Source: a virus (lineage: Duplodnaviria > Heunggongvirae > Uroviricota > Caudoviricetes). From it: a stretch of 11,144 bases of DNA. Shown here piece by piece: positions 1-11,144 of the stretch; the stretch's first letter is position 1; each line of letters opens with the position of its first letter. A program made the position numbers and the translations under genes. The stretch spans positions 1 through 11,144 of the IMG/VR virus record IMGVR_UViG_2695420643_000004, one strand, 5' to 3'. A model generated the notes under the pieces. The model did not search any database. It was not told the origin of the DNA and worked only from the letters and a program-made list of their open reading frames with translations.

Positions 1-360
1 CCCGTTCCTGATGGTGTGGCGATGACGGGTACCGGTAATCCGTTCCTGATGTCGTACTTCACTCAGACCACTGACGGCAGAGTGAATCTGATGCATCACA
101 GGAAAGCCGGAAACACGAAGCTGGGGGAGTTCGGCGATTACGGTAACGACTGGCAGACGCTGGAGCTGGTGTTCACCGCCGGCAGTGCCACGGTTACTCC
201 GAAACTGAATGGAGTGGCTGGCCCGGCATTCCAGGTTATAAAAGACAGTCTGACACTGGGACTGAATGCGCTGACGCTGACGGATGTTACAAAAAATGCA
301 GCGTATGGCGTTGAGATAGAAAGTCTGGTGCTGGAGATAAATGCACCGGCATCATCATAA
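1..360 (+). CDS. 3' end of an upstream gene (5'-partial; C-terminal 119 aa, Gly/Thr/Asn-rich, probably beta-rich); product not recognised
   Basis: Frame 1 is open from base 1 to TAA at 358-360; the ORF-track start at 16 is only the first in-frame GTG. Sits upstream of the holin, the slot where lambdoid phages carry morons. No family recognised from this fragment. Confidence 0.55.
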
Positions 361-445
361 AAAGTGAGCCAGTCAAATGGAAGGTATCGTTAAACTCACC
401 GGTAGTGTCAGTGGGTCGTCTGAGACGCCTGCATGAGTTATCAGA

Positions 446-474
446 GCCATCAGTAGTTAACTGGTGGCTTTTTT
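446..474 (+). terminator. Intrinsic terminator-like hairpin downstream of the upstream gene
   Basis: Stem GCCATCAG (446-453) pairs with CTGGTGGC (461-468), one G-U wobble, 7-nt loop, followed by TTTTTT (469-474). Confidence 0.45.
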
Positions 475-509
475 ATTGTTGTCAGCTTCCGGATAACGGG
501 AGACGGGGT

Positions 510-725
510 ATGTACCAGATGGAAAAAATCACAACAGGTGTGTCATACACCACGTCAGCGGTGGGGACGGGATACTGGTTACTGCAGCTGCTGGACAAAG
601 TCTCTCCGTCCCAGTGGGTGGCAATAGGCGTGCTGGGGAGTCTGCTGTTTGGTCTGCTGACGTACCTGACGAACCTGTATTTCAAAATCAGAGAAGACCG
701 GCGTAAGGCGGCGCGGGGAGAGTAG
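510..725 (+). CDS. S: Class II holin (pinholin), phage 21 S / DLP12 EssD-like, 71 aa with dual start (Met1 at 510, Met4 at 519)
   Basis: [10 protein letters not shown]... has two TM segments: a Gly/Ala/Ser-rich TMD1 (SAR-like) and TMD2 [18 protein letters not shown], then a charged tail [24 protein letters not shown] lies just upstream of the ATG. The ORF-track start at 405 is an upstream in-frame start without a comparable RBS. Confidence 0.88.
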
Positions 726-728
726 ACG

Positions 729-1370
729 ATGAACCATGAAGAAATGAATCAGCGCATAAGTTGCCTGGAAAATGAAATCACTGAACTGAATAAAAAACTG
801 TCGGTGCTGATGGTTTCTGAAGATGAAAAAAAACGCCGCGATGAGCAGGAAGCAGCGTTTTACGATGATTGCATCAAAATTGCTCGCAGGACCTTTGCGA
901 AGATTTTGCAGGAAAAGTTTTTACCGACCGCATTGTCAGAAAAGTACTCCATTACAGTTAAAAGTGCCGGAGAGGAAGGCAATAAACGTTATTTTATTGC
1001 GTCTGCACCGGATAAAGACCAGGAATGGGGGGATAATCGGCCATCTTTTATTGTGACAAGCGATGACTGGAATATCACGATCCGTGAAGATGGAAAAGTA
1101 ACACCAGCATCGCACCAGCACAGTGAGGCGCTCATTGAATTTGCCATTGATTACCTGAAGAACAATAAAAAGCAGGGACTAATGAAGCGCATTGGTCGTT
1201 GCATGGGATATCTGCAGGTAGCTGCTGAGATTGAAGCGCTGGCCAGTGGTGCGGACAAGGATGCAGTTGTGCGGGAGGCTCTTCTTCGTGATTTTGATAA
1301 TCCGCCCTTTAAAAAAGTGCCGGCTTACTGGTTTCATCCAGGACTGACTTATCTTAAAGGACGTATATAA
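729..1370 (+). CDS. Hypothetical protein, 213 aa, soluble, N-terminal coiled-coil-like segment; inserted between holin and endolysin
   Basis: ATG is 3 nt after the holin stop with GGGGAGAG 7 nt upstream, so it is probably translationally coupled to S. Visibly AT-rich compared with flanking phage genes. No TM segment or signal peptide, and no family recognised. Confidence 0.7.
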   Translation: MNHEEMNQRISCLENEITELNKKLSVLMVSEDEKKRRDEQEAAFYDDCIKIARRTFAKILQEKFLPTALSEKYSITVKSAGEEGNKRYFIASAPDKDQEWGDNRPSFIVTSDDWNITIREDGKVTPASHQHSEALIEFAIDYLKNNKKQGLMKRIGRCMGYLQVAAEIEALASGADKDAVVREALLRDFDNPPFKKVPAYWFHPGLTYLKGRI

Positions 1371-1379
1371 GCTGGCTCG

Positions 1380-1736
1380 TTATCTGTTGCCGGATAATCG
1401 ACGGAAGATGCGTTCTTTTTGTGATTTGGCGTAATGATGATCCCACTCACATTCAAGGTAGTTTAATTCTTCGTTTAACCAGTCATTTATATTGTCTTTC
1501 AGACGTAGAAGCATGGCTGGTGTTAATATTCTGGACATAATGTCGAGAGTTGGTGGTGTGAGGTGTCCATACGGCTCAGCCTGAATGGATTTTACTGCTT
1601 CGTGGTTTTGCTGAATGAGTTTAAGGAATGCTGATTTAAATTGTTCATTCATGGCCTGCATGCAGGCGGTATATTTATGTTCATCGTTATACATTGCTAA
1701 ATCCTCGACGGGAATTGTCAGATATATTTCAGCCAT
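1380..1736 (-). CDS. Hypothetical protein, 118 aa from ATG at 1736 (122 aa if the GTG at 1748 is used); convergent with the preceding gene
   Basis: Only long ORF in the AT-rich 1371-1822 interval, where random ORFs this long are uncommon. Its stop is 9 bp from the stop of the 729-1370 gene. The RBS is weak and no family is recognised. Confidence 0.45.
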   Translation of the reverse strand: MAEIYLTIPVEDLAMYNDEHKYTACMQAMNEQFKSAFLKLIQQNHEAVKSIQAEPYGHLTPPTLDIMSRILTPAMLLRLKDNINDWLNEELNYLECEWDHHYAKSQKERIFRRLSGNR

Positions 1737-1822
1737 CAGGTAAAACACCAGTGCCCACCACTGGCGGGCTGAAGACTTAACATATCCAGGGATTCGGAAC
1801 CGATAAATCCTGATAAATATCC

Positions 1823-2356
1823 ATGAACACCAAAATCAAATACGGTCTGTCGGCTGCCGTTCTGGCGCTGATTGCCGCAGGTGCGCCTGCGCCTGAAATC
1901 CTCGACCAGTTTCTGGATGAAAAGGAAGGTAACCACACCACGGCATACCGTGATGGTGCGGGGATCTGGACCATCTGCCGTGGAGCCACCCGGGTGGATG
2001 GTAAGCCTGTTATTCCTGGCATGAAGCTGTCAAAGGAAAAATGCGACCGGGTTAACGCCATTGAACGTGATAAGGCGCTGGCATGGGTGGCGAAAAACAT
2101 CAAAGTGCCACTGACTGAACCCCAGAAAGCGGGGATCGCGTCATTCTGCCCGTATAACATTGGCCCCGGTAAGTGTTTCCCGTCGACGTTTTATAAACGA
2201 ATTAATGCAGGCGATCGCAGGGGAGCGTGTGAAGCGATTCGCTGGTGGATTAAGGATGGTGGCAGAGACTGCCGTATCCGCTCAAACAACTGTTACGGTC
2301 AGATATCCCGTCGTGACCAGGAGAGCGCGCTGACGTGCTGGGGAATCGACAGATAA
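1823..2356 (+). CDS. R: SAR endolysin (T4-lysozyme-like muramidase, GH24), DLP12 RrrD-like
   Basis: N-terminal signal-anchor-release segment YGLSAAVLALIAAGAPAP, then the lysozyme catalytic spacing E(GNHTTAYR)D(GAGIW)T. No Shine-Dalgarno motif is visible within about 15 nt upstream of the ATG. Confidence 0.9.
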   Translation: MNTKIKYGLSAAVLALIAAGAPAPEILDQFLDEKEGNHTTAYRDGAGIWTICRGATRVDGKPVIPGMKLSKEKCDRVNAIERDKALAWVAKNIKVPLTEPQKAGIASFCPYNIGPGKCFPSTFYKRINAGDRRGACEAIRWWIKDGGRDCRIRSNNCYGQISRRDQESALTCWGIDR

Positions 2357-2445
2357 GCAGAATATTTTGCTGAAAAATGACGTTGACCAACGCGGACGGA
2401 TAACACGAAATCCTGCGAACTGGCAAAACCTAAGTGAATAAAAGT

Positions 2446-2485
2446 AAAACCCCGTTTGTTGGCAGCAAGCGGGGTTTTGTGTTTC
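2446..2485 (+). terminator. Intrinsic terminator-like hairpin downstream of R
   Basis: AAAACCCCGTTTG (2446-2458) pairs with CAAGCGGGGTTTT (2466-2478), 7-nt loop, one G-U wobble, followed by a T-rich run GTGTTTCTG. Confidence 0.45.
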
Positions 2486-2511
2486 TGACCTTGGATAAGG
2501 CAAGGGAGAAC

Positions 2512-2694
2512 ATGGAAAAGTATAAACGAATTCTGTTGAGGTTGACTATGAAAAACGGCCTTGAACTGAAAGCGCCTGTAACTGATGACATCAGCAGAGC
2601 GCTGGCTTTTGCTATTAAGTGGGTGGCGGTCGGTATTGCTGTGTCTCCGATGCTGTATGGGCTGGCAAAACTGGTCATTGCGTTGAAATCGTGA
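2512..2694 (+). CDS. Small hypothetical membrane protein, 60 aa, with a C-terminal hydrophobic helix
   Basis: ATG at 2512 is preceded by AGGGAGAA. Predicted TM segment WVAVGIAVSPMLYGLAKLVIAL. The ORF-track start at 2434 is a GTG inside the terminator hairpin and is unlikely. Confidence 0.5.
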   Translation: MEKYKRILLRLTMKNGLELKAPVTDDISRALAFAIKWVAVGIAVSPMLYGLAKLVIALKS

Positions 2695-2706
2695 AGAGGA
2701 TTAAGC

Positions 2707-2838
2707 ATGTCAGACAAGCTCATAACGCTGGCGAAGATCCTCTGTGTAATCGTCGGCATTTCATTTTCACTAATGCTGGTTGCTCTTAGGCTGGATGATG
2801 TTGTCTTCGTCGGGGATGCTGGGGTGAGGGGGATATGA
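2707..2838 (+). CDS. Small hypothetical membrane peptide, 43 aa ([43 protein letters not shown])
   Basis: ATG at 2707 with GAGGA upstream; one predicted TM helix; its stop overlaps the Rz start (ATATGA). Not in the ORF track because it is short. Confidence 0.4.
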
Positions 2839-3302
2839 ACCGTGTTCTGTGTGTGGTGATTATTGTCCTGCTGGTAGCCTGTGGTGCGCTTGGTCTGGGG
2901 CTGAATCATTACCGCGATAACGCCATCACCTACAAAGCGCAGCGCGATAAAAAAGTCAGAGAGCTGGAGCTGGCGAACGCGACAATTACTGATATGCAGA
3001 TACGCCAGCGTGATGTCGCTGCGCTCGATGCAAAATACTCGAAGGAATTAGCCGATGCGAGAGCTGAAAATGAAACTCTGCGTGCTGATGTTGCCGCTGG
3101 TCGTAAGCGCCTGCGGATCAACGCCACCTGCCCCGGTACCGTGCGTGAAGCCACCGGCACCTCCGGCGTGGATAATGCAACCGGCCCCCGACTGGCAGAC
3201 ACCGCTGAACGGGATTATTTCATCCTCAGAGAACGGTTGATGATGATGCAGAAGCAGCTGGAAGGGGCGCAGGAATATATCCGCACTCAGTGTATTAACT
3301 AG
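2835..3302 (+). CDS. Rz: Rz i-spanin (inner-membrane spanin subunit), 155 aa
   Basis: N-terminal TM anchor and a coiled-coil periplasmic domain with the conserved [15 protein letters not shown]...[12 protein letters not shown] motif close to lambda Rz; nested Rz1 in the +1 frame. Confidence 0.9.
3055..3240 (+). CDS. Rz1: Rz1 o-spanin (outer-membrane lipoprotein), embedded within Rz in the +1 frame
   Basis: Lipobox LVVSAC followed by a proline-rich mature region ([32 protein letters not shown]) resembling lambda Rz1. Start could be the ATG at 3055 or 3070. Confidence 0.85.
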
Positions 3303-3325
3303 TATTTTTGTTATCCGGAGAATGC

Positions 3326-3550
3326 ATGAAGAAATTACTGGTAACCGTAAAGCCTTTTCAGGGAACAATTCCGTTCCGTGTTTTGCAGCGTGGTCGTGTT
3401 CTTATTGAAGGTTCGTTCAGTGGTAAATGTACGCAATTACACTCCCGGACCTTTCAGGTGAATGCCACGAATGAAGAGCTAACCGTGGAGTGTACGATGA
3501 ATGCCGCTAAATGCCGCATGGCATCCGCTGCATTACAGCCAGTGTGTTGA
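3326..3550 (+). CDS. Hypothetical small protein, 74 aa, four Cys, no signal peptide; in the Rz-to-cos moron slot
   Basis: ATG at 3326 preceded by CCGGAGAA. The ORF-track start at 3308 is TTG. Not Bor-like (no lipoprotein signal). Possible relationship to small DLP12-region proteins such as YbcW is unverified. Confidence 0.45.
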   Translation: MKKLLVTVKPFQGTIPFRVLQRGRVLIEGSFSGKCTQLHSRTFQVNATNEELTVECTMNAAKCRMASAALQPVC

Positions 3551-3809
3551 GCGACCTTATTATCCATGCGCGGTATTGTCGCCGTATTCCCGTATTAACA
3601 GAGACCGCAGCCCGACAGGGAGACTCCTCTGCGCGAGTGTGCGGGGATAATCAAAAACGATACACACCGGGGTTTACCGCGTTAACGGAGCGCGGCGTTG
3701 TCCCCTCATGGTCGCTGGTCCGGTGCGATGGTGGAAGAAACTGGATTTTGTTGCAACTGATAATCATTATTGTTTTCGCGGGTCCTTTCCGGCGATCCGG
3801 GCCGTTACG

Positions 3810-3821
3810 GGGCGGCGACCT
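3810..3821. other. cosN: cosN cohesive-end sequence GGGCGGCGACCT (12-nt lambda-type overhang, terminase nicking site)
   Basis: Exact match to the lambda left cohesive end as recalled. Flanks (CGGGCCGTTACG upstream, CGCGGGTTTTCGCTATTTATGAAAATTTTCCGG downstream) match recalled lambda genome ends. Confidence 0.85.
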
Positions 3822-3860
3822 CGCGGGTTTTCGCTATTTATGAAAATTTTCCGGGGAAAA

Positions 3861-3969
3861 TCATGTCGGTACTTCTCGAACATAACTATTTGTTTTTTCT
3901 AATATCGAATCCGTAAAGGTCCGACATGAAAACGCCTGAAAAAGTCATTTTCGGGCACTTTCATGTCGG
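3861..3969. promoter_or_regulatory. cosB: cosB: three putative small-terminase R elements (TCATGTCGG at 3861-3869 forward, 3920-3928 inverted, 3961-3969 forward) with an A/T-rich putative IHF site (about 3881-3912) between the first and second
   Basis: Three copies of one 9-mer in alternating orientation within 110 bp between cosN and nu1, mirroring the lambda R3-I1-R2-R1 layout. The motif differs from the lambda R element as I recall it (CGTTTCC core). Confidence 0.6.
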
Positions 3970-3996
3970 ATCCTGTATTTGTTGTGAGACTGTTTC

Positions 3997-4516
3997 ATGA
4001 AGGTTAATAAAAAGAAACTTGCCGAAATTTTCAACGTGGATCCGCGAACGATTGAACGCTGGCAGTCTCAGGGGCTCCCTTGCGTCTCCGGAGGTGGTAA
4101 GGGCGTTGAATCTGTATTTGATACCGCCACGGCAATTCAGTGGTATGCGCAGAGGGAAGCTGATATCGAAAATGAAAAACTCCGTAAAGAGGTTGAGGAT
4201 TACAGGGCTGCCAGCGAGGCAGATCTCCAGCCTGGGACTATTGAGTACGAACGCCATCGACTTACGCGTGCGCAGGCTGACGCCCAGGAGCTGAAGAATG
4301 CCAGAGACTCCGCAGAAGTGGTGGAAACCGCATTCTGTACTTTCGTGCTGTCACGGATCGCAGGTGAAATTGCCAGTATTCTTGACGGGATCCCTCTCTC
4401 AGTACAGCGGCGTTTTCCGGAACTGGAAAACCGACATGTTGATTTCCTGAAACGGGATATTATCAAAGCCATGAACAAAGCAGCCGCGCTGGATGAACTG
4501 ATACCGGGGTTGCTGA

Positions 4517-4542
<26 letters not shown>
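3997..4542 (+). CDS. nu1: Terminase small subunit (Nu1/gp1), 181 aa
   Basis: The C-terminal two thirds match lambda Nu1 as recalled ([56 protein letters not shown]...). The N-terminal DNA-binding domain is divergent. Overlaps A by 26 nt as in lambda. Confidence 0.95.
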
Positions 4543-8223
<3,681 letters not shown>

Positions 8224-8243
<20 letters not shown>

Positions 8244-9543
8244 TCTCCCGCATATTGCCAGCATGGCTTTTAATGAGCCGCTGATGCTTGAACCCGCCTA
8301 TGCGCGGGTTTTCTTTTGTGCGCTTGCAGGCCAGCTTGGGATCAGCCGCCTGACGGATGCAGTATCCGGCGACAGCCTGACTGCCGGAGAGGCACCCGCG
8401 GCGCTGGCGTTATCCGGTGATGATGACGGACCACGACAGGCCCGCAGTTATCAGGTCATGAACGGCATCGCCGTGCTGCCGGTGTCCGGTACGCTGGTCA
8501 GCCGGACGCGGGCGCTGCAGCCGTATTCGGGAATGACCGGTTACAACGGCATTATCGCCCGTCTGCAACAGGCTGCCAGCGATCCGATGGTGGACGGCAT
8601 TCTGCTGGATATGGACACACCGGGCGGGATGGTGGCGGGAGCATTTGACTGTGCTGACATCATTGCCCGTGTGCGAGACATAAAACCGGTATGGGCGCTG
8701 GCCAACGACATGAACTGCAGTGCAGGTCAGCTGCTTGCCAGCGCCGCCTCCCGGCGTCTGGTCACGCAGACCGCCCGGACAGGCTCCATCGGCGTCATGA
8801 TGGCTCACAGTAATTACGGTGCTGCGCTGGAGAAACAGGGCGTGGAAATCACGCTGATTTACAGCGGCAGCCATAAGGTGGATGGCAACCCCTACAGCCA
8901 TCTACCGGATGATGTCCGGGAAACACTGCAGTCCCGGATGGATGCAACCCGCCGGATGTTTGCACAGAAGGTGTCGGCATATACCGGCCTGTCCGTGCAG
9001 GCTGTGCTGGATACCGAGGCTGCAGTGTACAGCGGTCAGGAGGCCATTGATGCCGGACTGGCTGATGAACTTGTGAACAGTACCGATGCGATCACCGTCA
9101 TGCGTGATGCACTGGATGCACGTAAATCCCGTCTCTCAGGAGGGCGAATGACCAAAGAGACTCAATCAACAACTGTTTCAGCCACTGCTTCGCAGGCTGA
9201 CGTTACTGGCGTGGTGCAAGCGACGGAGGGCGAGAACGCCAGCGCTGCGCAGCCGGACGTGAACGCGCAGATCACCGCAGCGGTTGCGGCAGAAAACAGT
9301 CGCATTATGGGGATCCTCAACTGTGAGGAGGCTCACGGACGCGAAGAACAGGCATGCGTGCTGGCCGAAACCCCCGGTATGACCGTGGAAACGGCCCGCC
9401 GTATTCTGGCCGCAGCACCACAGAGTGCACAGGCGCGCAGTGACACTGCGCTGGATCGTCTGATGCAGGGGGCACCGGCACCGCTGGCTGCAGGTAACCC
9501 GGCATCTGATGCCGTTAACGATTTGCTGAACACACCAGTGTAA
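8224..9543 (+). CDS. C: Head maturation protease / minor capsid protein gpC, 439 aa, GTG start overlapping the B 3' end
   Basis: Protein from GTG at 8224 (TAELRNLPHIASMAFNEPLMLEP...) matches lambda C as recalled. The ORF-track start at 8089 lies inside B and is rejected. Confidence 0.92.
8938..9543 (+). CDS. nu3: Scaffolding protein Nu3, in-frame internal start within C, 201 aa
   Basis: Internal ATG at 8938 (MDATRRMFAQK...) in the C frame, sharing the C stop; position collinear with lambda nu3. Confidence 0.7.
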   Translation: MDATRRMFAQKVSAYTGLSVQAVLDTEAAVYSGQEAIDAGLADELVNSTDAITVMRDALDARKSRLSGGRMTKETQSTTVSATASQADVTGVVQATEGENASAAQPDVNAQITAAVAAENSRIMGILNCEEAHGREEQACVLAETPGMTVETARRILAAAPQSAQARSDTALDRLMQGAPAPLAAGNPASDAVNDLLNTPV

Positions 9544-9552
9544 GGGATGTTT

Positions 9553-9885
9553 ATGACGAGCAAAGAAACCTTTACCCATTACCAGCCGCTGGGCAACAGT
9601 GACCCGGCTCATACCGCAACCGCGCCCGGCGGATTGAGTGCGAAAGCGCCTGCAATGACCCCGCTGATGCTGGACACCTCCACCCGTAAGCTGGTTGCGT
9701 GGGATGGCACCACCGACGGTGCTGCCGTTGGCATTCTTGCAGTTGCTGCTGACCAGACCAGCACCACACTGACGTTCTACAAGTCCGGCACGTTCCGTTA
9801 TGAGGATGTGCTCTGGCCGGAGGCTGCCAGCGACGAGACGAAAAAACGGACCGCGTTTGCCGGAACGGCAATCAGCATCGTTTAA
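9553..9885 (+). CDS. D: Head decoration protein gpD, 110 aa
   Basis: [27 protein letters not shown]... matches lambda D as recalled. The second ATG (9553) is chosen over the first (9547), with AAGGGA upstream. Confidence 0.94.
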
Positions 9886-9902
9886 CCTGACCCTTCATCA
9901 CT

Positions 9903-9927
9903 AAAGGCCGCCTGTGCGGCTTTTTTT
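9903..9927 (+). terminator. Stem-loop with T-run in the D-E intergenic region (terminator-like or mRNA-processing structure)
   Basis: GCCGC (9907-9911) pairs with GCGGC (9916-9920), loop CTGT, flanking A/T pairs, then TTTTTTT (9921-9927). Confidence 0.4.
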
Positions 9928-9940
9928 ACGGGATTTTTTT

Positions 9941-10966
9941 ATGTCGATGTACACAACCGCCCAGCTGCTGGCGGCAAATGAGCAGAAATTTAAGTTTGAT
10001 CCGCTGTTTCTGCGTCTCTTTTTCCGTGAGAGCTATCCCTTCACTACGGAGAAAGTCTATCTCTCACAAATTCCGGGACTGGTAAACATGGCGCTGTACG
10101 TTTCGCCGATTGTTTCCGGTGAGGTTATCCGTTCCCGTGGCGGCTCCACCTCTGAATTTACGCCGGGATATGTCAAACCCAAGCATGAAGTGAATCCGCA
10201 GATGACCCTGCGTCGCCTGCCGGATGAAGATCCGCAGAATCTGGCGGACCCGGCTTACCGCCGCCGTCGCATCATCATGCAGAACATGCGTGACGAAGAG
10301 CTGGCCATTGCTCAGGTCGAAGAGATGCAGGCAGTTTCTGCCGTGCTCAAGGGCAAATACACCATGACCGGTGAAGCCTTCGATCCGGTTGAGGTGGATA
10401 TGGGCCGCAGTGCGACGAACAACATCACGCAGTCCGGCGGCACGGAGTGGAGCAAGCGTGACAAGTCCACGTATGACCCGACCGACGATATCGAAGCCTA
10501 CGCGCTGAACGCCAGCGGCGTGGTGAATATCATCGTGTTTGACCCGAAAGGCTGGGCGCTGTTCCGTTCCTTCAAAGCCGTCAGGGAGAAGCTGGATACC
10601 CGTCGCGGCTCTCATTCCGAACTGGAGACAGCGGTAAAAGACCTGGGCAAAGCGGTGTCTTATAAGGGAATGTATGGCGATGTGGCCATCGTCGTGTATT
10701 CCGGACAGTACGTGGAAAACGGCGTCAAAAAGAACTTCCTGCCGGACAACACGATGGTGCTGGGTAACACTCATGCACGCGGTCTGCGCACCTATGGCTG
10801 TATTCAGGATGCGGATGCATTGAGTGAGGGTATTAATGCGTCTCCCCGTTATCCGAAAAACTGGAAGACATCCGGCGATCCGGCGCGAGAGTTCACCATG
10901 ATTCAGTCAGCACCGCTGATGCTGCTGGCTGATCCTGATGAGTTCGTGTCCGTTCAACTGGCGTAA
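9941..10966 (+). CDS. E: Major capsid protein gpE, 341 aa
   Basis: MSMYTTAQLLAANEQKFKFDPLFLRLFF... matches lambda E as recalled. The ORF-track start at 9914 is upstream and in frame but runs through the hairpin; ATG 9941 is used. Confidence 0.96.
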   Translation: MSMYTTAQLLAANEQKFKFDPLFLRLFFRESYPFTTEKVYLSQIPGLVNMALYVSPIVSGEVIRSRGGSTSEFTPGYVKPKHEVNPQMTLRRLPDEDPQNLADPAYRRRRIIMQNMRDEELAIAQVEEMQAVSAVLKGKYTMTGEAFDPVEVDMGRSATNNITQSGGTEWSKRDKSTYDPTDDIEAYALNASGVVNIIVFDPKGWALFRSFKAVREKLDTRRGSHSELETAVKDLGKAVSYKGMYGDVAIVVYSGQYVENGVKKNFLPDNTMVLGNTHARGLRTYGCIQDADALSEGINASPRYPKNWKTSGDPAREFTMIQSAPLMLLADPDEFVSVQLA

Positions 10967-10968
10967 TC

Positions 10969-10990
10969 ATGGCCCTTAGGGGCCATTTTC
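10969..10990 (+). terminator. Stem-loop in the E-FI intergenic region followed by a T-rich tract
   Basis: ATGGCCC paired with GGGCCAT around a 4-nt loop (10969-10986), then TTTCTCTCT. Confidence 0.3.
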
Positions 10991-11007
10991 TCTCTGTGGA
11001 GGAGTCC

Positions 11008-11144
11008 ATGACGAAAGATGAACTGATTGCCCGTCTCCGGTCGCTGGGTGAGCAACTGAACCGTGATGTCAGCCTGACGGGGACGAAAGAAGAACTGGCG
11101 CTCCGTGTGGCAGAGCTGGAAGAGGAGCTTGATGACACGGATGA
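11008..11144 (+). CDS. FI: DNA packaging protein FI (3'-partial, first 45 codons)
   Basis: MTKDELIARLRSLGEQLNRDVSLTGTKEELALRVAELEEELDDTD matches the lambda FI N-terminus as recalled; GGAGGAG RBS upstream. Confidence 0.88.
   Translation, partial: MTKDELIARLRSLGEQLNRDVSLTGTKEELALRVAELEEELDDTD

Follow-up and report, generated by a model that had tools for sequence, protein, structure and literature searches.

In the Shiga toxin (Stx) phage 933W, as in AU6Stx1, P27 and VT2phi_272, a phage-21-type holin gene (S) is directly followed by the endolysin gene (R), which starts ATGAGC/AAC AGG AAA CTC CGC TAT after an S stop codon TAA and the spacer GCTG. In the Qin prophage of Escherichia coli K-12 (essQ-ydfR-rrrQ) a gene stands between holin and endolysin: ydfR starts 4 nucleotides (nt) after the S stop, encodes a 103-amino-acid (aa) DUF1327 protein and ends in a stop codon that overlaps the R start in ATGA (CTATGAAC). 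Lambdoid phages more generally carry morons in Hendrix's sense, which are extra genes inserted between conserved neighbours and usually A+T-richer. Here we report an analysis of the S-R interval in IMG/VR virus record IMGVR_UViG_2695420643_000004, positions 1 to 11,144 (this whole stretch of 11,144 nt is referred to as the window). The gene order in its list of open reading frames (ORFs) and the Pfam matches identify the window as late-region DNA from a lambdoid, Stx-phage-like E. coli prophage, and two cargo genes separate S from R in it. An earlier note on the same DNA had remarked on a short direct repeat (ATGAAC and CCATGAA) at both ends of the cargo, which it took, as one reading beside chance, for the trace of an insertion at the ancestral R start codon. 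As flagged, the repeat matters little, genes between S and R being already annotated in K-12 Qin and in many Stx phages; the comparison adds the modest but usable picture that the S-R junction is a defined cargo slot with sharp ends, and that R comes in two fully linked start haplotypes with opposite predicted initiation properties. The features on which the argument turns are the following.

510-725, plus strand: S, phage-21-type class II holin (pinholin), 71 aa (Pfam PF04971, E 1e-32, 63/64 profile positions)
715-722, plus strand: Shine-Dalgarno (SD) sequence GGGGAGAG in the last S codons, serving whichever gene follows S (anti-SD duplex -8.5 kcal/mol)
729-1370, plus strand: 213-aa cargo gene, no Pfam family
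1380-1694/1736, minus strand: antisense cargo gene, no Pfam family
1748-1822, plus strand: right-end module common to several otherwise different cassettes, with leader ATAAATCCTGATAAATATCC and GATAAAT repeated 11 nt apart
1805-1849, plus strand: self-contained, SD-less translation initiation region of R (-18 to +27), A/U-rich and predicted single-stranded
1823-2356, plus strand: R, endolysin of 177 aa, phage lysozyme (Pfam PF00959, E 2.7e-24)

The window resembles the 933W group in its holin (92% nt identity) and endolysin body (93%, as for R nucleotide identity to 933W R), in the presence of GGGGAGAG in the 3' end of S and in a next gene placed 3-4 nt past the S stop; it differs in that this next gene is not R. 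It resembles Qin in having a gene between holin and endolysin, in an R without an SD, and in homology that covers the ~18 nt directly before R as well as its first codons (MNTKIRYGLS). Unlike Qin, it carries a 213-aa DUF1327-less protein together with an antisense gene, and 452 nt separate the cargo stop from R. The cassettes of phage 86, PhiR5_1, Stx2_95 and Stx2_12E129 occupy the same slot and have the same right-end leader; phage 86 is 87% identical to window positions 943-1822 and Stx2_12E129 is 88% identical over the whole S-R interval, both with a homologous antisense gene. At the N-terminus of the slot protein, phage 86, PhiR5_1 and Stx2_95 have DUF1327, whereas the window and Stx2_12E129 have a short helical module (MNHEEM...).

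The slot between holin and endolysin

We compared 244 S-R intervals taken from IMG/VR pattern scans, GenBank phage records and K-12; IMG/VR counts, here and below, are among the matches listed, and the loci are not independent, many coming from near-identical prophages. S and R adjoin without interruption in 91 of the 244 listed loci, 17 show the K-12 Qin arrangement, in which the overlap is 4 nt (16 IMG/VR loci and K-12 itself, where the ydfR/rrrQ ATGA overlap lies at NC_000913.3 1640054-1640057), and 136 carry a cargo of 358-1316 nt, the end of whose first gene lies 36-881 nt from R. That first gene starts in at least eight ways (MKKKYE, MNKKYE, MTQNYE, MTQDYE, MVQNYE, MNKQYE and MNHEEM, with the variants MKHEEM and MNPEEM). 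The particular arrangement of the window is found over at least 80% of its length in 92 of 5,426 complete E. coli genomes, and positions 480-2400 share 99.9% identity with chromosomes from several Shiga-toxigenic E. coli, in which RefSeq annotates both middle genes as hypothetical proteins.

The left end of the slot is the simpler of the two. GGGGAGAG is near-invariant among the 244 listed loci and the next ATG lies 3-4 nt past the S stop in 189 of 190, while the S stop codon and the spacer co-vary with cargo type, so that the left boundary of the module falls at the S stop codon. The earlier note had correctly observed that the 213-aa gene begins directly after the S stop behind GGGGAGAG, the distance being 3 nt, and this first position after S is indeed the one that R holds in the uninterrupted phages 933W, AU6Stx1 and P27. 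Empty sites were sought with a composite in which the 3' end of S was joined directly to the 5' end of R, and it was matched in one piece by 933W and many other Stx phages. The junction of 933W, AU6Stx1 and P27 is GGGGAGAG-TAA-GCTG-ATG, with R 4 nt after S, within the longer sequence GGGGAGAGTAA-GCTG-ATGA[G/A]CAGGAAACTCCGCTAT; the usual form continues GGGGAGAG-TAA-GCTG-ATGAGCAGGAAACTCCGCTATGGTTTATCG, ATGAAC being found in a few phages such as AU6Stx1.

These empty sites do not read as the window would if its cargo were lifted out. The stop codon is TAA rather than TAG and the spacer GCTG rather than ACG, and R nt 1-27 differs at 8-9 positions, synonymous ones included, while the two R genes are almost identical beyond. 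An empty site with the window's own R allele was matched by 0 IMG/VR loci, against 83 for a control pattern, and among the top-ranked of the 5,426 E. coli genomes none stood above two-piece matches. The alignment to uninterrupted S-R junctions thus returns a different junction sequence, an outcome that the earlier note had itself named as refuting an insertion at the ATG, and the breakpoint falls near R nt +27 instead of at the R start codon.

At the right end, the leader ATAAAYCCTGATAAATATCC and the R 5' codons that follow it precede R behind at least eight other cargo types. The ~18 nt before the R ATG (TCCTGATAAATATCC) are common to nearly all cargo types, a second leader (GCTGAATATTTAATATATCC) standing before R in about a dozen loci. 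In K-12 Qin the last ~18 nt of the leader are homologous to C-terminal codons of ydfR, and in BP-4795 the homologue of the module at 1748-1822 consists of the last 5 ydfR codons and the spacer. Since the leader stands behind other cargo types and has this homology in Qin, the SD-less context of R predates the 213-aa gene. The suggestion that the insertion of this gene stripped R of its ribosome-binding site (RBS) therefore does not hold. GATAAAT occurs at 1801 and 1812, with both copies kept in most cargo types; the pair could reflect mere A/U-richness, a -10-like element or a protein-binding site.

The 5' end of R and what lies upstream of it are completely linked. To avoid any selection on the upstream context, loci were retrieved with R nt 13-32 as the sole query. 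Among the matches listed, the 933W-type R core has the S-coupled SD before it in 85 of 85 and the window-type core has the A/U-rich SD-less leader before it in 169 of 169, without a single recombinant between R 5' end and context in either set. A pattern joining the leader to a 933W-type R (ATATCCATGARCAGGAAA) gave nine matches, all of them unrelated sequences. The 8 near-fixed class differences are all confined to R nt 5-27; S and the remaining 507 nt of R have none. Divergence between the classes reaches 41% in R nt 1-27 and elsewhere is roughly equal to that within classes. Taken together, linkage and the pattern of differences mean that the variable block runs past the R start codon and ends about 27 nt into R.

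On the strength of the anatomy of the slot, the linkage at its right end, the mosaicism of its cargo (below) and the predicted energetics of the R start, we regard 729-1822 as, probably, one variant of a long-established, recombining cargo slot between pinholin S and endolysin R in Stx-type lambdoid E. coli prophages. The slot would have fixed ends. Its left end would be the S stop codon, with the first cargo gene starting 3-4 nt on, using the SD embedded in S and probably being made in step with the holin. Its right end would be a ~45-nt unit, made up of ~18 nt of A/U-rich leader and R nt 1-27, which appears to travel with R in every interrupted cassette listed and differs sharply from the 5' end of an uninterrupted R. 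The window's cargo would have been built by recombination among slot variants, and the leader may descend from a stop-start coupling to ydfR, or the coupling from the leader.

Initiation of the endolysin gene

The earlier note had found no SD before R, and this is borne out: the anti-SD duplex over the 20 nt upstream is +0.3 kcal/mol, against -8.5 kcal/mol for GGGGAGAG. The R start region is 75% A+U. Its predicted opening cost (-18 to +12) is 2.8 kcal/mol, compared with a window mean of 14.1 +/- 4.4, which is in the lowest 0.25% of positions, and in the minimum-free-energy fold of 1730-1880 positions 1815-1842 are single-stranded between structured flanks. The distinction between the two kinds of R holds across the distinct contexts compared, and their ranges of opening cost do not overlap.

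Leader-type class: opening cost 5.2 kcal/mol (0.8-8.7), SD duplex -0.1, A+U 73%
Uninterrupted class: opening cost 14.6 kcal/mol (9.7-21.8), SD duplex -8.3, A+U 42%

The 933W-type start is thus G+C-richer and structured but has an SD, the converse of the start in the window. Placing codons 1-9 of 933W R behind the window leader raises the predicted opening cost from 2.8 to 8.0 kcal/mol, and this rise of ~5 kcal/mol means that the A-rich early codons of R belong to the unstructured site.

No plus-strand ORF ends near the R start, the nearest plus-strand gene stop being 452 nt upstream, so that initiation of R cannot be coupled to S or to the cargo gene. From the sequence and its modelled folding we infer that R is initiated de novo and independently of an SD on an unstructured, A/U-rich region. 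By a published principle, mRNA that locally lacks structure can be initiated without an SD (Scharff et al. 2011, PMC3121790), and the R site of the window has the marks of such initiation: no SD, A/U-richness from -18 to +27 and a predicted unpaired start. The likeness to the sites of Scharff et al. 2011 (PMC3121790) is one of mechanism only, and for the window site a predicted one. By the same mechanism, R initiation would be S1-assisted and structure-free (PMC3121790). In Qin a third way of initiating this endolysin seems to be present, namely stop-start coupling to the cargo gene, and R could accordingly be overlap-coupled there. A literature search on ydfR, DUF1327, BP-4795 and signal-anchor-release (SAR) endolysins with Shine-Dalgarno found nothing on the S-R slot or on R initiation.

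We think that R is probably adequately made, because its leader recurs in entries submitted as phages, of which some name a host (BP-4795, phage 86, and PhiR phages on E. coli C or K-12), because R is under strong purifying selection (ratio of nonsynonymous to synonymous substitution rates, dN/dS, of 0.09-0.13), and because the structure-free principle is published. Any effect of the arrangement on lysis timing, or any difference from 933W in the amount or timing of R relative to holin, would be conjectural. The N-terminus of R (YGLSAAVLALIAAGAPAP) is Gly/Ala-rich and weakly hydrophobic like those of SAR endolysins; R would accordingly be of the SAR type, with membrane release a prediction. 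SAR endolysins accumulate in the membrane and need little protein, as in phage 21 and P1 lysis. This bears on the best surviving alternative, that the SD-less context is genuinely poor and R under-produced, whether by adaptive tuning, an over-made SAR endolysin causing premature lysis, or by prophage decay. It would account for the missing SD and the decoupling of R from S, it fits the small amount of endolysin needed, and many carriers are resident prophages. We nevertheless consider it unlikely, given that R is intact and constrained, that phage records have the same leader, and that the start is among the least structured sites of the window with coding codons contributing, so that it looks maintained rather than decayed; so unusually unstructured a predicted start argues against a simply 'poor' R site.

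Slightly less likely still is an R that is not initiated independently, whether from a short or leaderless transcript arising within the leader, with GATAAAT as a -10-like element, or through undetected coupling or reinitiation. Two GATAAAT motifs lie 11 nt apart just 5' of the ATG, the Qin-type R is overlap-coupled to ydfR, and the leader is conserved beyond the apparent need of an unstructured spacer. Set against this, a crude promoter scan of both strands of 1700-1830 gave no sigma-70-like site, the candidate -10 hexamers are poor matches to the consensus, and the nearest plus-strand gene ends 452 nt away with no plausible ORF ending at the R start. Lambdoid phage late genes are, moreover, transcribed as one antiterminated unit.

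A number of points count against the slot as we have set it out, with its de novo start of R. Near-identical prophages make the locus counts overstate the number of independent events. The opening energies were computed on 120-nt fragments rather than on the real late transcript, and SD-independent initiation is a deduction from sequence and predicted folding. So crude a promoter scan leaves room for a separate transcript. The full linkage at the right end could simply mark the edge of a non-homologous block across which no crossovers are possible, rather than co-adaptation. Finally, a 5-nt microhomology (ATGAA) could conceivably have served in some ancient illegitimate recombination.

A bolder version of the slot explanation, which we put forward tentatively and hold to be possible but far from established, is that R has two discrete initiation designs that have never recombined. 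One would be the SD-coupled start and the other a portable ~45-nt SD-less unit (-18 to +27) with codons tuned to be unstructured; the latter would have arisen from the ydfR stop-start overlap and would have freed the S-R junction to become a cargo hot spot. If so, any gene placed behind S would be expressed at holin stoichiometry with the endolysin supply undisturbed, and the first nine codons of R would be selected for mRNA accessibility, not for protein sequence. The linkage of R 5' end and context, with its opposite predicted energetics, may or may not reflect co-adaptation. The locus could serve as a natural test of how SD-less initiation works within a polycistronic late mRNA, and the slot boundaries should be of some practical use in annotating and engineering Stx-phage lysis cassettes.

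The short repeat at the junctions

The two copies of the repeat are placed as follows.

729-740, plus strand: left copy, ATGAAC at 729-734 (start codon and Asn) and CCATGAA at 734-740 (within codons 2-4)
1821-1828, plus strand: right copy, CCATGAAC, with the R start codon at 1823

The left copy lies within ATGAACCATGAA (729-740), which follows the S stop TAG at 723-725 and the 3-nt spacer ACG. The bases of the repeat are present at both sites as reported, with the correction that the left CCATGAA lies at 734-740, not 733-739, and is internal to the 213-aa gene instead of at the junction. The repeat is no more than chance. On the two strands of the window ATGAAC is present 16 times, where shuffles predict 6.65, and Rz at 2835 begins with it too; for CCATGAA the count is 4 and the expectation 2.1, and 27 of 200 shuffles reach that count. 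Two exact 11-nt direct repeats are found within the same 1.9 kb. The copies of ATGAAC are offset by 1094 nt and those of CCATGAA by 1087 nt, so that the two matches cannot be one duplication. Relatives of the 213-aa gene start ATGAAGCATGAA or ATGAACCCTGAA, which breaks the repeat, and leader-type R genes start ATGAAC, ATGAGC or ATGAAT; with R and cargo starts both variable, the repeat is neither general to interrupted junctions nor conserved in the window's own gene family.

A target-site duplication or microhomology scar leaves a repeat in one register, with a single copy in the empty site, that exceeds chance and is conserved among copies. The repeat here is in two registers, at chance level and broken in relatives, and most empty sites read ATGAGC and differ also in the stop codon, the spacer and through R nt 27. 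Nor is there a sign of a transposable element or insertion sequence: 726-1822 has no terminal inverted repeat, and the cargo proteins match no Pfam or NCBIfam family. As an insertion signature the repeat has to be given up; the hexamer is a coincidence of two start codons, each with an A-rich second codon.

Weakest of all, and in our judgement very improbable, is therefore an exact insertion of the cassette at the ancestral R start by recombination or duplication at ATGAAC/CCATGAA, the new gene keeping the S-coupled RBS and R being stripped of it: the 213-aa gene does stand in the position of a 933W-type R, some few empty sites (AU6Stx1; 3 of the 91 listed loci) do have ATGAAC at the R start and the left junction GGGGAGAGTAG-ACG-ATGAA is common with the PhiR5_1-type ydfR gene, but chance-level matches in incompatible registers, their loss in close relatives of the 213-aa gene, empty sites that differ in stop, spacer and 8-9 of R's first 27 nt, the lack of any empty site with the window R allele in the sets searched, and the SD-less leader behind at least eight other cargo types and in K-12 Qin all speak against it.

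Cargo genes and neighbouring features

The cargo of the window is a DUF1327-less YdfR-family protein plus an antisense, moron-like gene. The 213-aa protein has 189 homologues, all in E. coli, and matches PHROG 1085 (E 2e-101, profile positions 117-296). It corresponds to about the C-terminal two-thirds of long YdfR-family proteins, being 60-87% identical to the C-terminal parts of PF07041-containing members of 268-333 aa. No Pfam match to DUF1327 (PF07041) was found in it, whereas the slot proteins of BP-4795, PhiR5_1, phage 86 and Stx2_95 match PF07041 with E 1e-40 to 1e-46; a short N-terminal helical module takes the place of the domain. At the DNA level the cassette is a mosaic, with 729-872 common with Stx2_499, 824-913 with PhiR5_1 and Stx2_95, 943-1822 with phage 86, 1017-1369 with Stx2_95, and 1748-1822 with BP-4795, PhiR5_1 and Stx2_499, which points to assembly by recombination among slot variants.

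Two further ideas were considered and set aside. An origin of the MNHEEM start by in-frame deletion from a DUF1327 fusion is unsupported, DNA and protein homology beginning only at 824 (codon 32). A resemblance between the N-termini of YdfR (MKKKYEL) and R (MNTKIKYGL) is too short to use, and the abundant MTQNYEL class weakens it further.

Searches for a function of the 213-aa protein gave no match in Pfam, NCBIfam or PADLOC and nothing significant in a PDB profile search, and its PHROG matches are all to families of unknown function. An AlphaFold2 model from a 31-sequence alignment was poor (predicted local distance difference test, pLDDT, 50; predicted template modelling score, pTM, 0.27). 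In the related YdfR of Qin, the first 72 residues bind the catalytic half of RNase E, and the protein co-purifies with RNA (PMC13232886). This is the only functional lead for the cargo, and the window protein is without that N-terminal domain.

RefSeq annotates the antisense gene as 118 aa from an ATG at 1736; a 104-aa version could start instead at 1694, behind a GAGGA SD, and the ORF reaches a GTG at 1748. Its product matches PHROG 1853, of unknown function, and no Pfam, NCBIfam or PDB entry; a PADLOC match to Cas6b (E 0.016) was dismissed as noise. For the 213-aa gene dN/dS is 0.30 against the copy in LC567841 (Stx2_12E129_PPompW) and for the antisense gene 0.36-0.47, so both look like real genes under purifying selection. 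The cargo genes evolve much faster than their neighbours, with aa identities of 84% and 67-68% compared with 93-97% for R and S, and dN/dS of 0.30-0.47 compared with 0.04-0.13 at similar synonymous distances.

Like lambdoid morons, the cargo is present or absent between conserved neighbours and deviates in base composition (G+C 0.40-0.46 for the cargo and 0.40-0.43 for the antisense gene, against 0.50-0.55 for S and R), and one of its genes lies opposite the late-operon strand. Measured against them, no clear promoter of its own was detected, the scan giving no sigma-70-like site near the antisense gene, and the plus-strand gene sits in the late operon and uses the holin SD. A further element lies upstream of the antisense gene.

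1746-1769, minus strand: terminator-like, G+C-rich hairpin GCCAGTG..CACTGGC followed by a T-run

It is kept in variants with the antisense gene or, in Stx2_499, with an unannotated stretch, while the plain ydfR type lacks it. The hairpin might act as an insulator, stabilise a 5' end or mark a processing site.

The rest of the lysis region conforms to a phage-21-type cassette, having an S21-family class II holin and an Rz gene with embedded Rz1. S, labelled 'class II holin family protein' in RefSeq, carries the dual-start motif, with Met1 at 510 and Met4 at 519. Downstream of R lie the following.

2512-2838, plus strand: two tiny ORFs with PHROG matches only
2835-3302, plus strand: Rz i-spanin, beginning ATGAAC (Pfam PF03245, E 8e-50)
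~3055-3240, plus strand: Rz1 lipoprotein ORF within Rz, lipobox LVVSAC (ORF list)
Downstream of Rz, plus strand: terminase and head genes (ORF list)

Directly 5' of the holin gene, at 443-480 on the plus strand, is a strong intrinsic-terminator-like hairpin with a 12-bp stem and a T-run, on account of which S and everything downstream presumably need antiterminated late transcription. The best genomic match, NZ_AP026097, has DUF1378 and DUF826 genes 5' of S; at the corresponding place in the window stand the 3' end of another ORF (16-360) and the terminator. This difference in content points to another mosaic boundary there.

The R-Rz interval (2357-2834) appears as a second cargo slot. A strong terminator-like hairpin at ~2451-2485 (CCCCGTTTG-TTGGCAG-CAAGCGGGG, then TTTTGTGTTT) is followed by two small hydrophobic ORFs, one of 60 aa (2512-2694) and one of 43 aa (2707-2838), whose matches are confined to PHROGs of unknown function. 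Rfam gave a single match in 300-3400, a rimP-leader at 2437-2510, which is sub-threshold (E 0.86) and was taken as chance. In 933W, BP-4795 and phage 86 the R-Rz slot holds the ant antirepressor gene.

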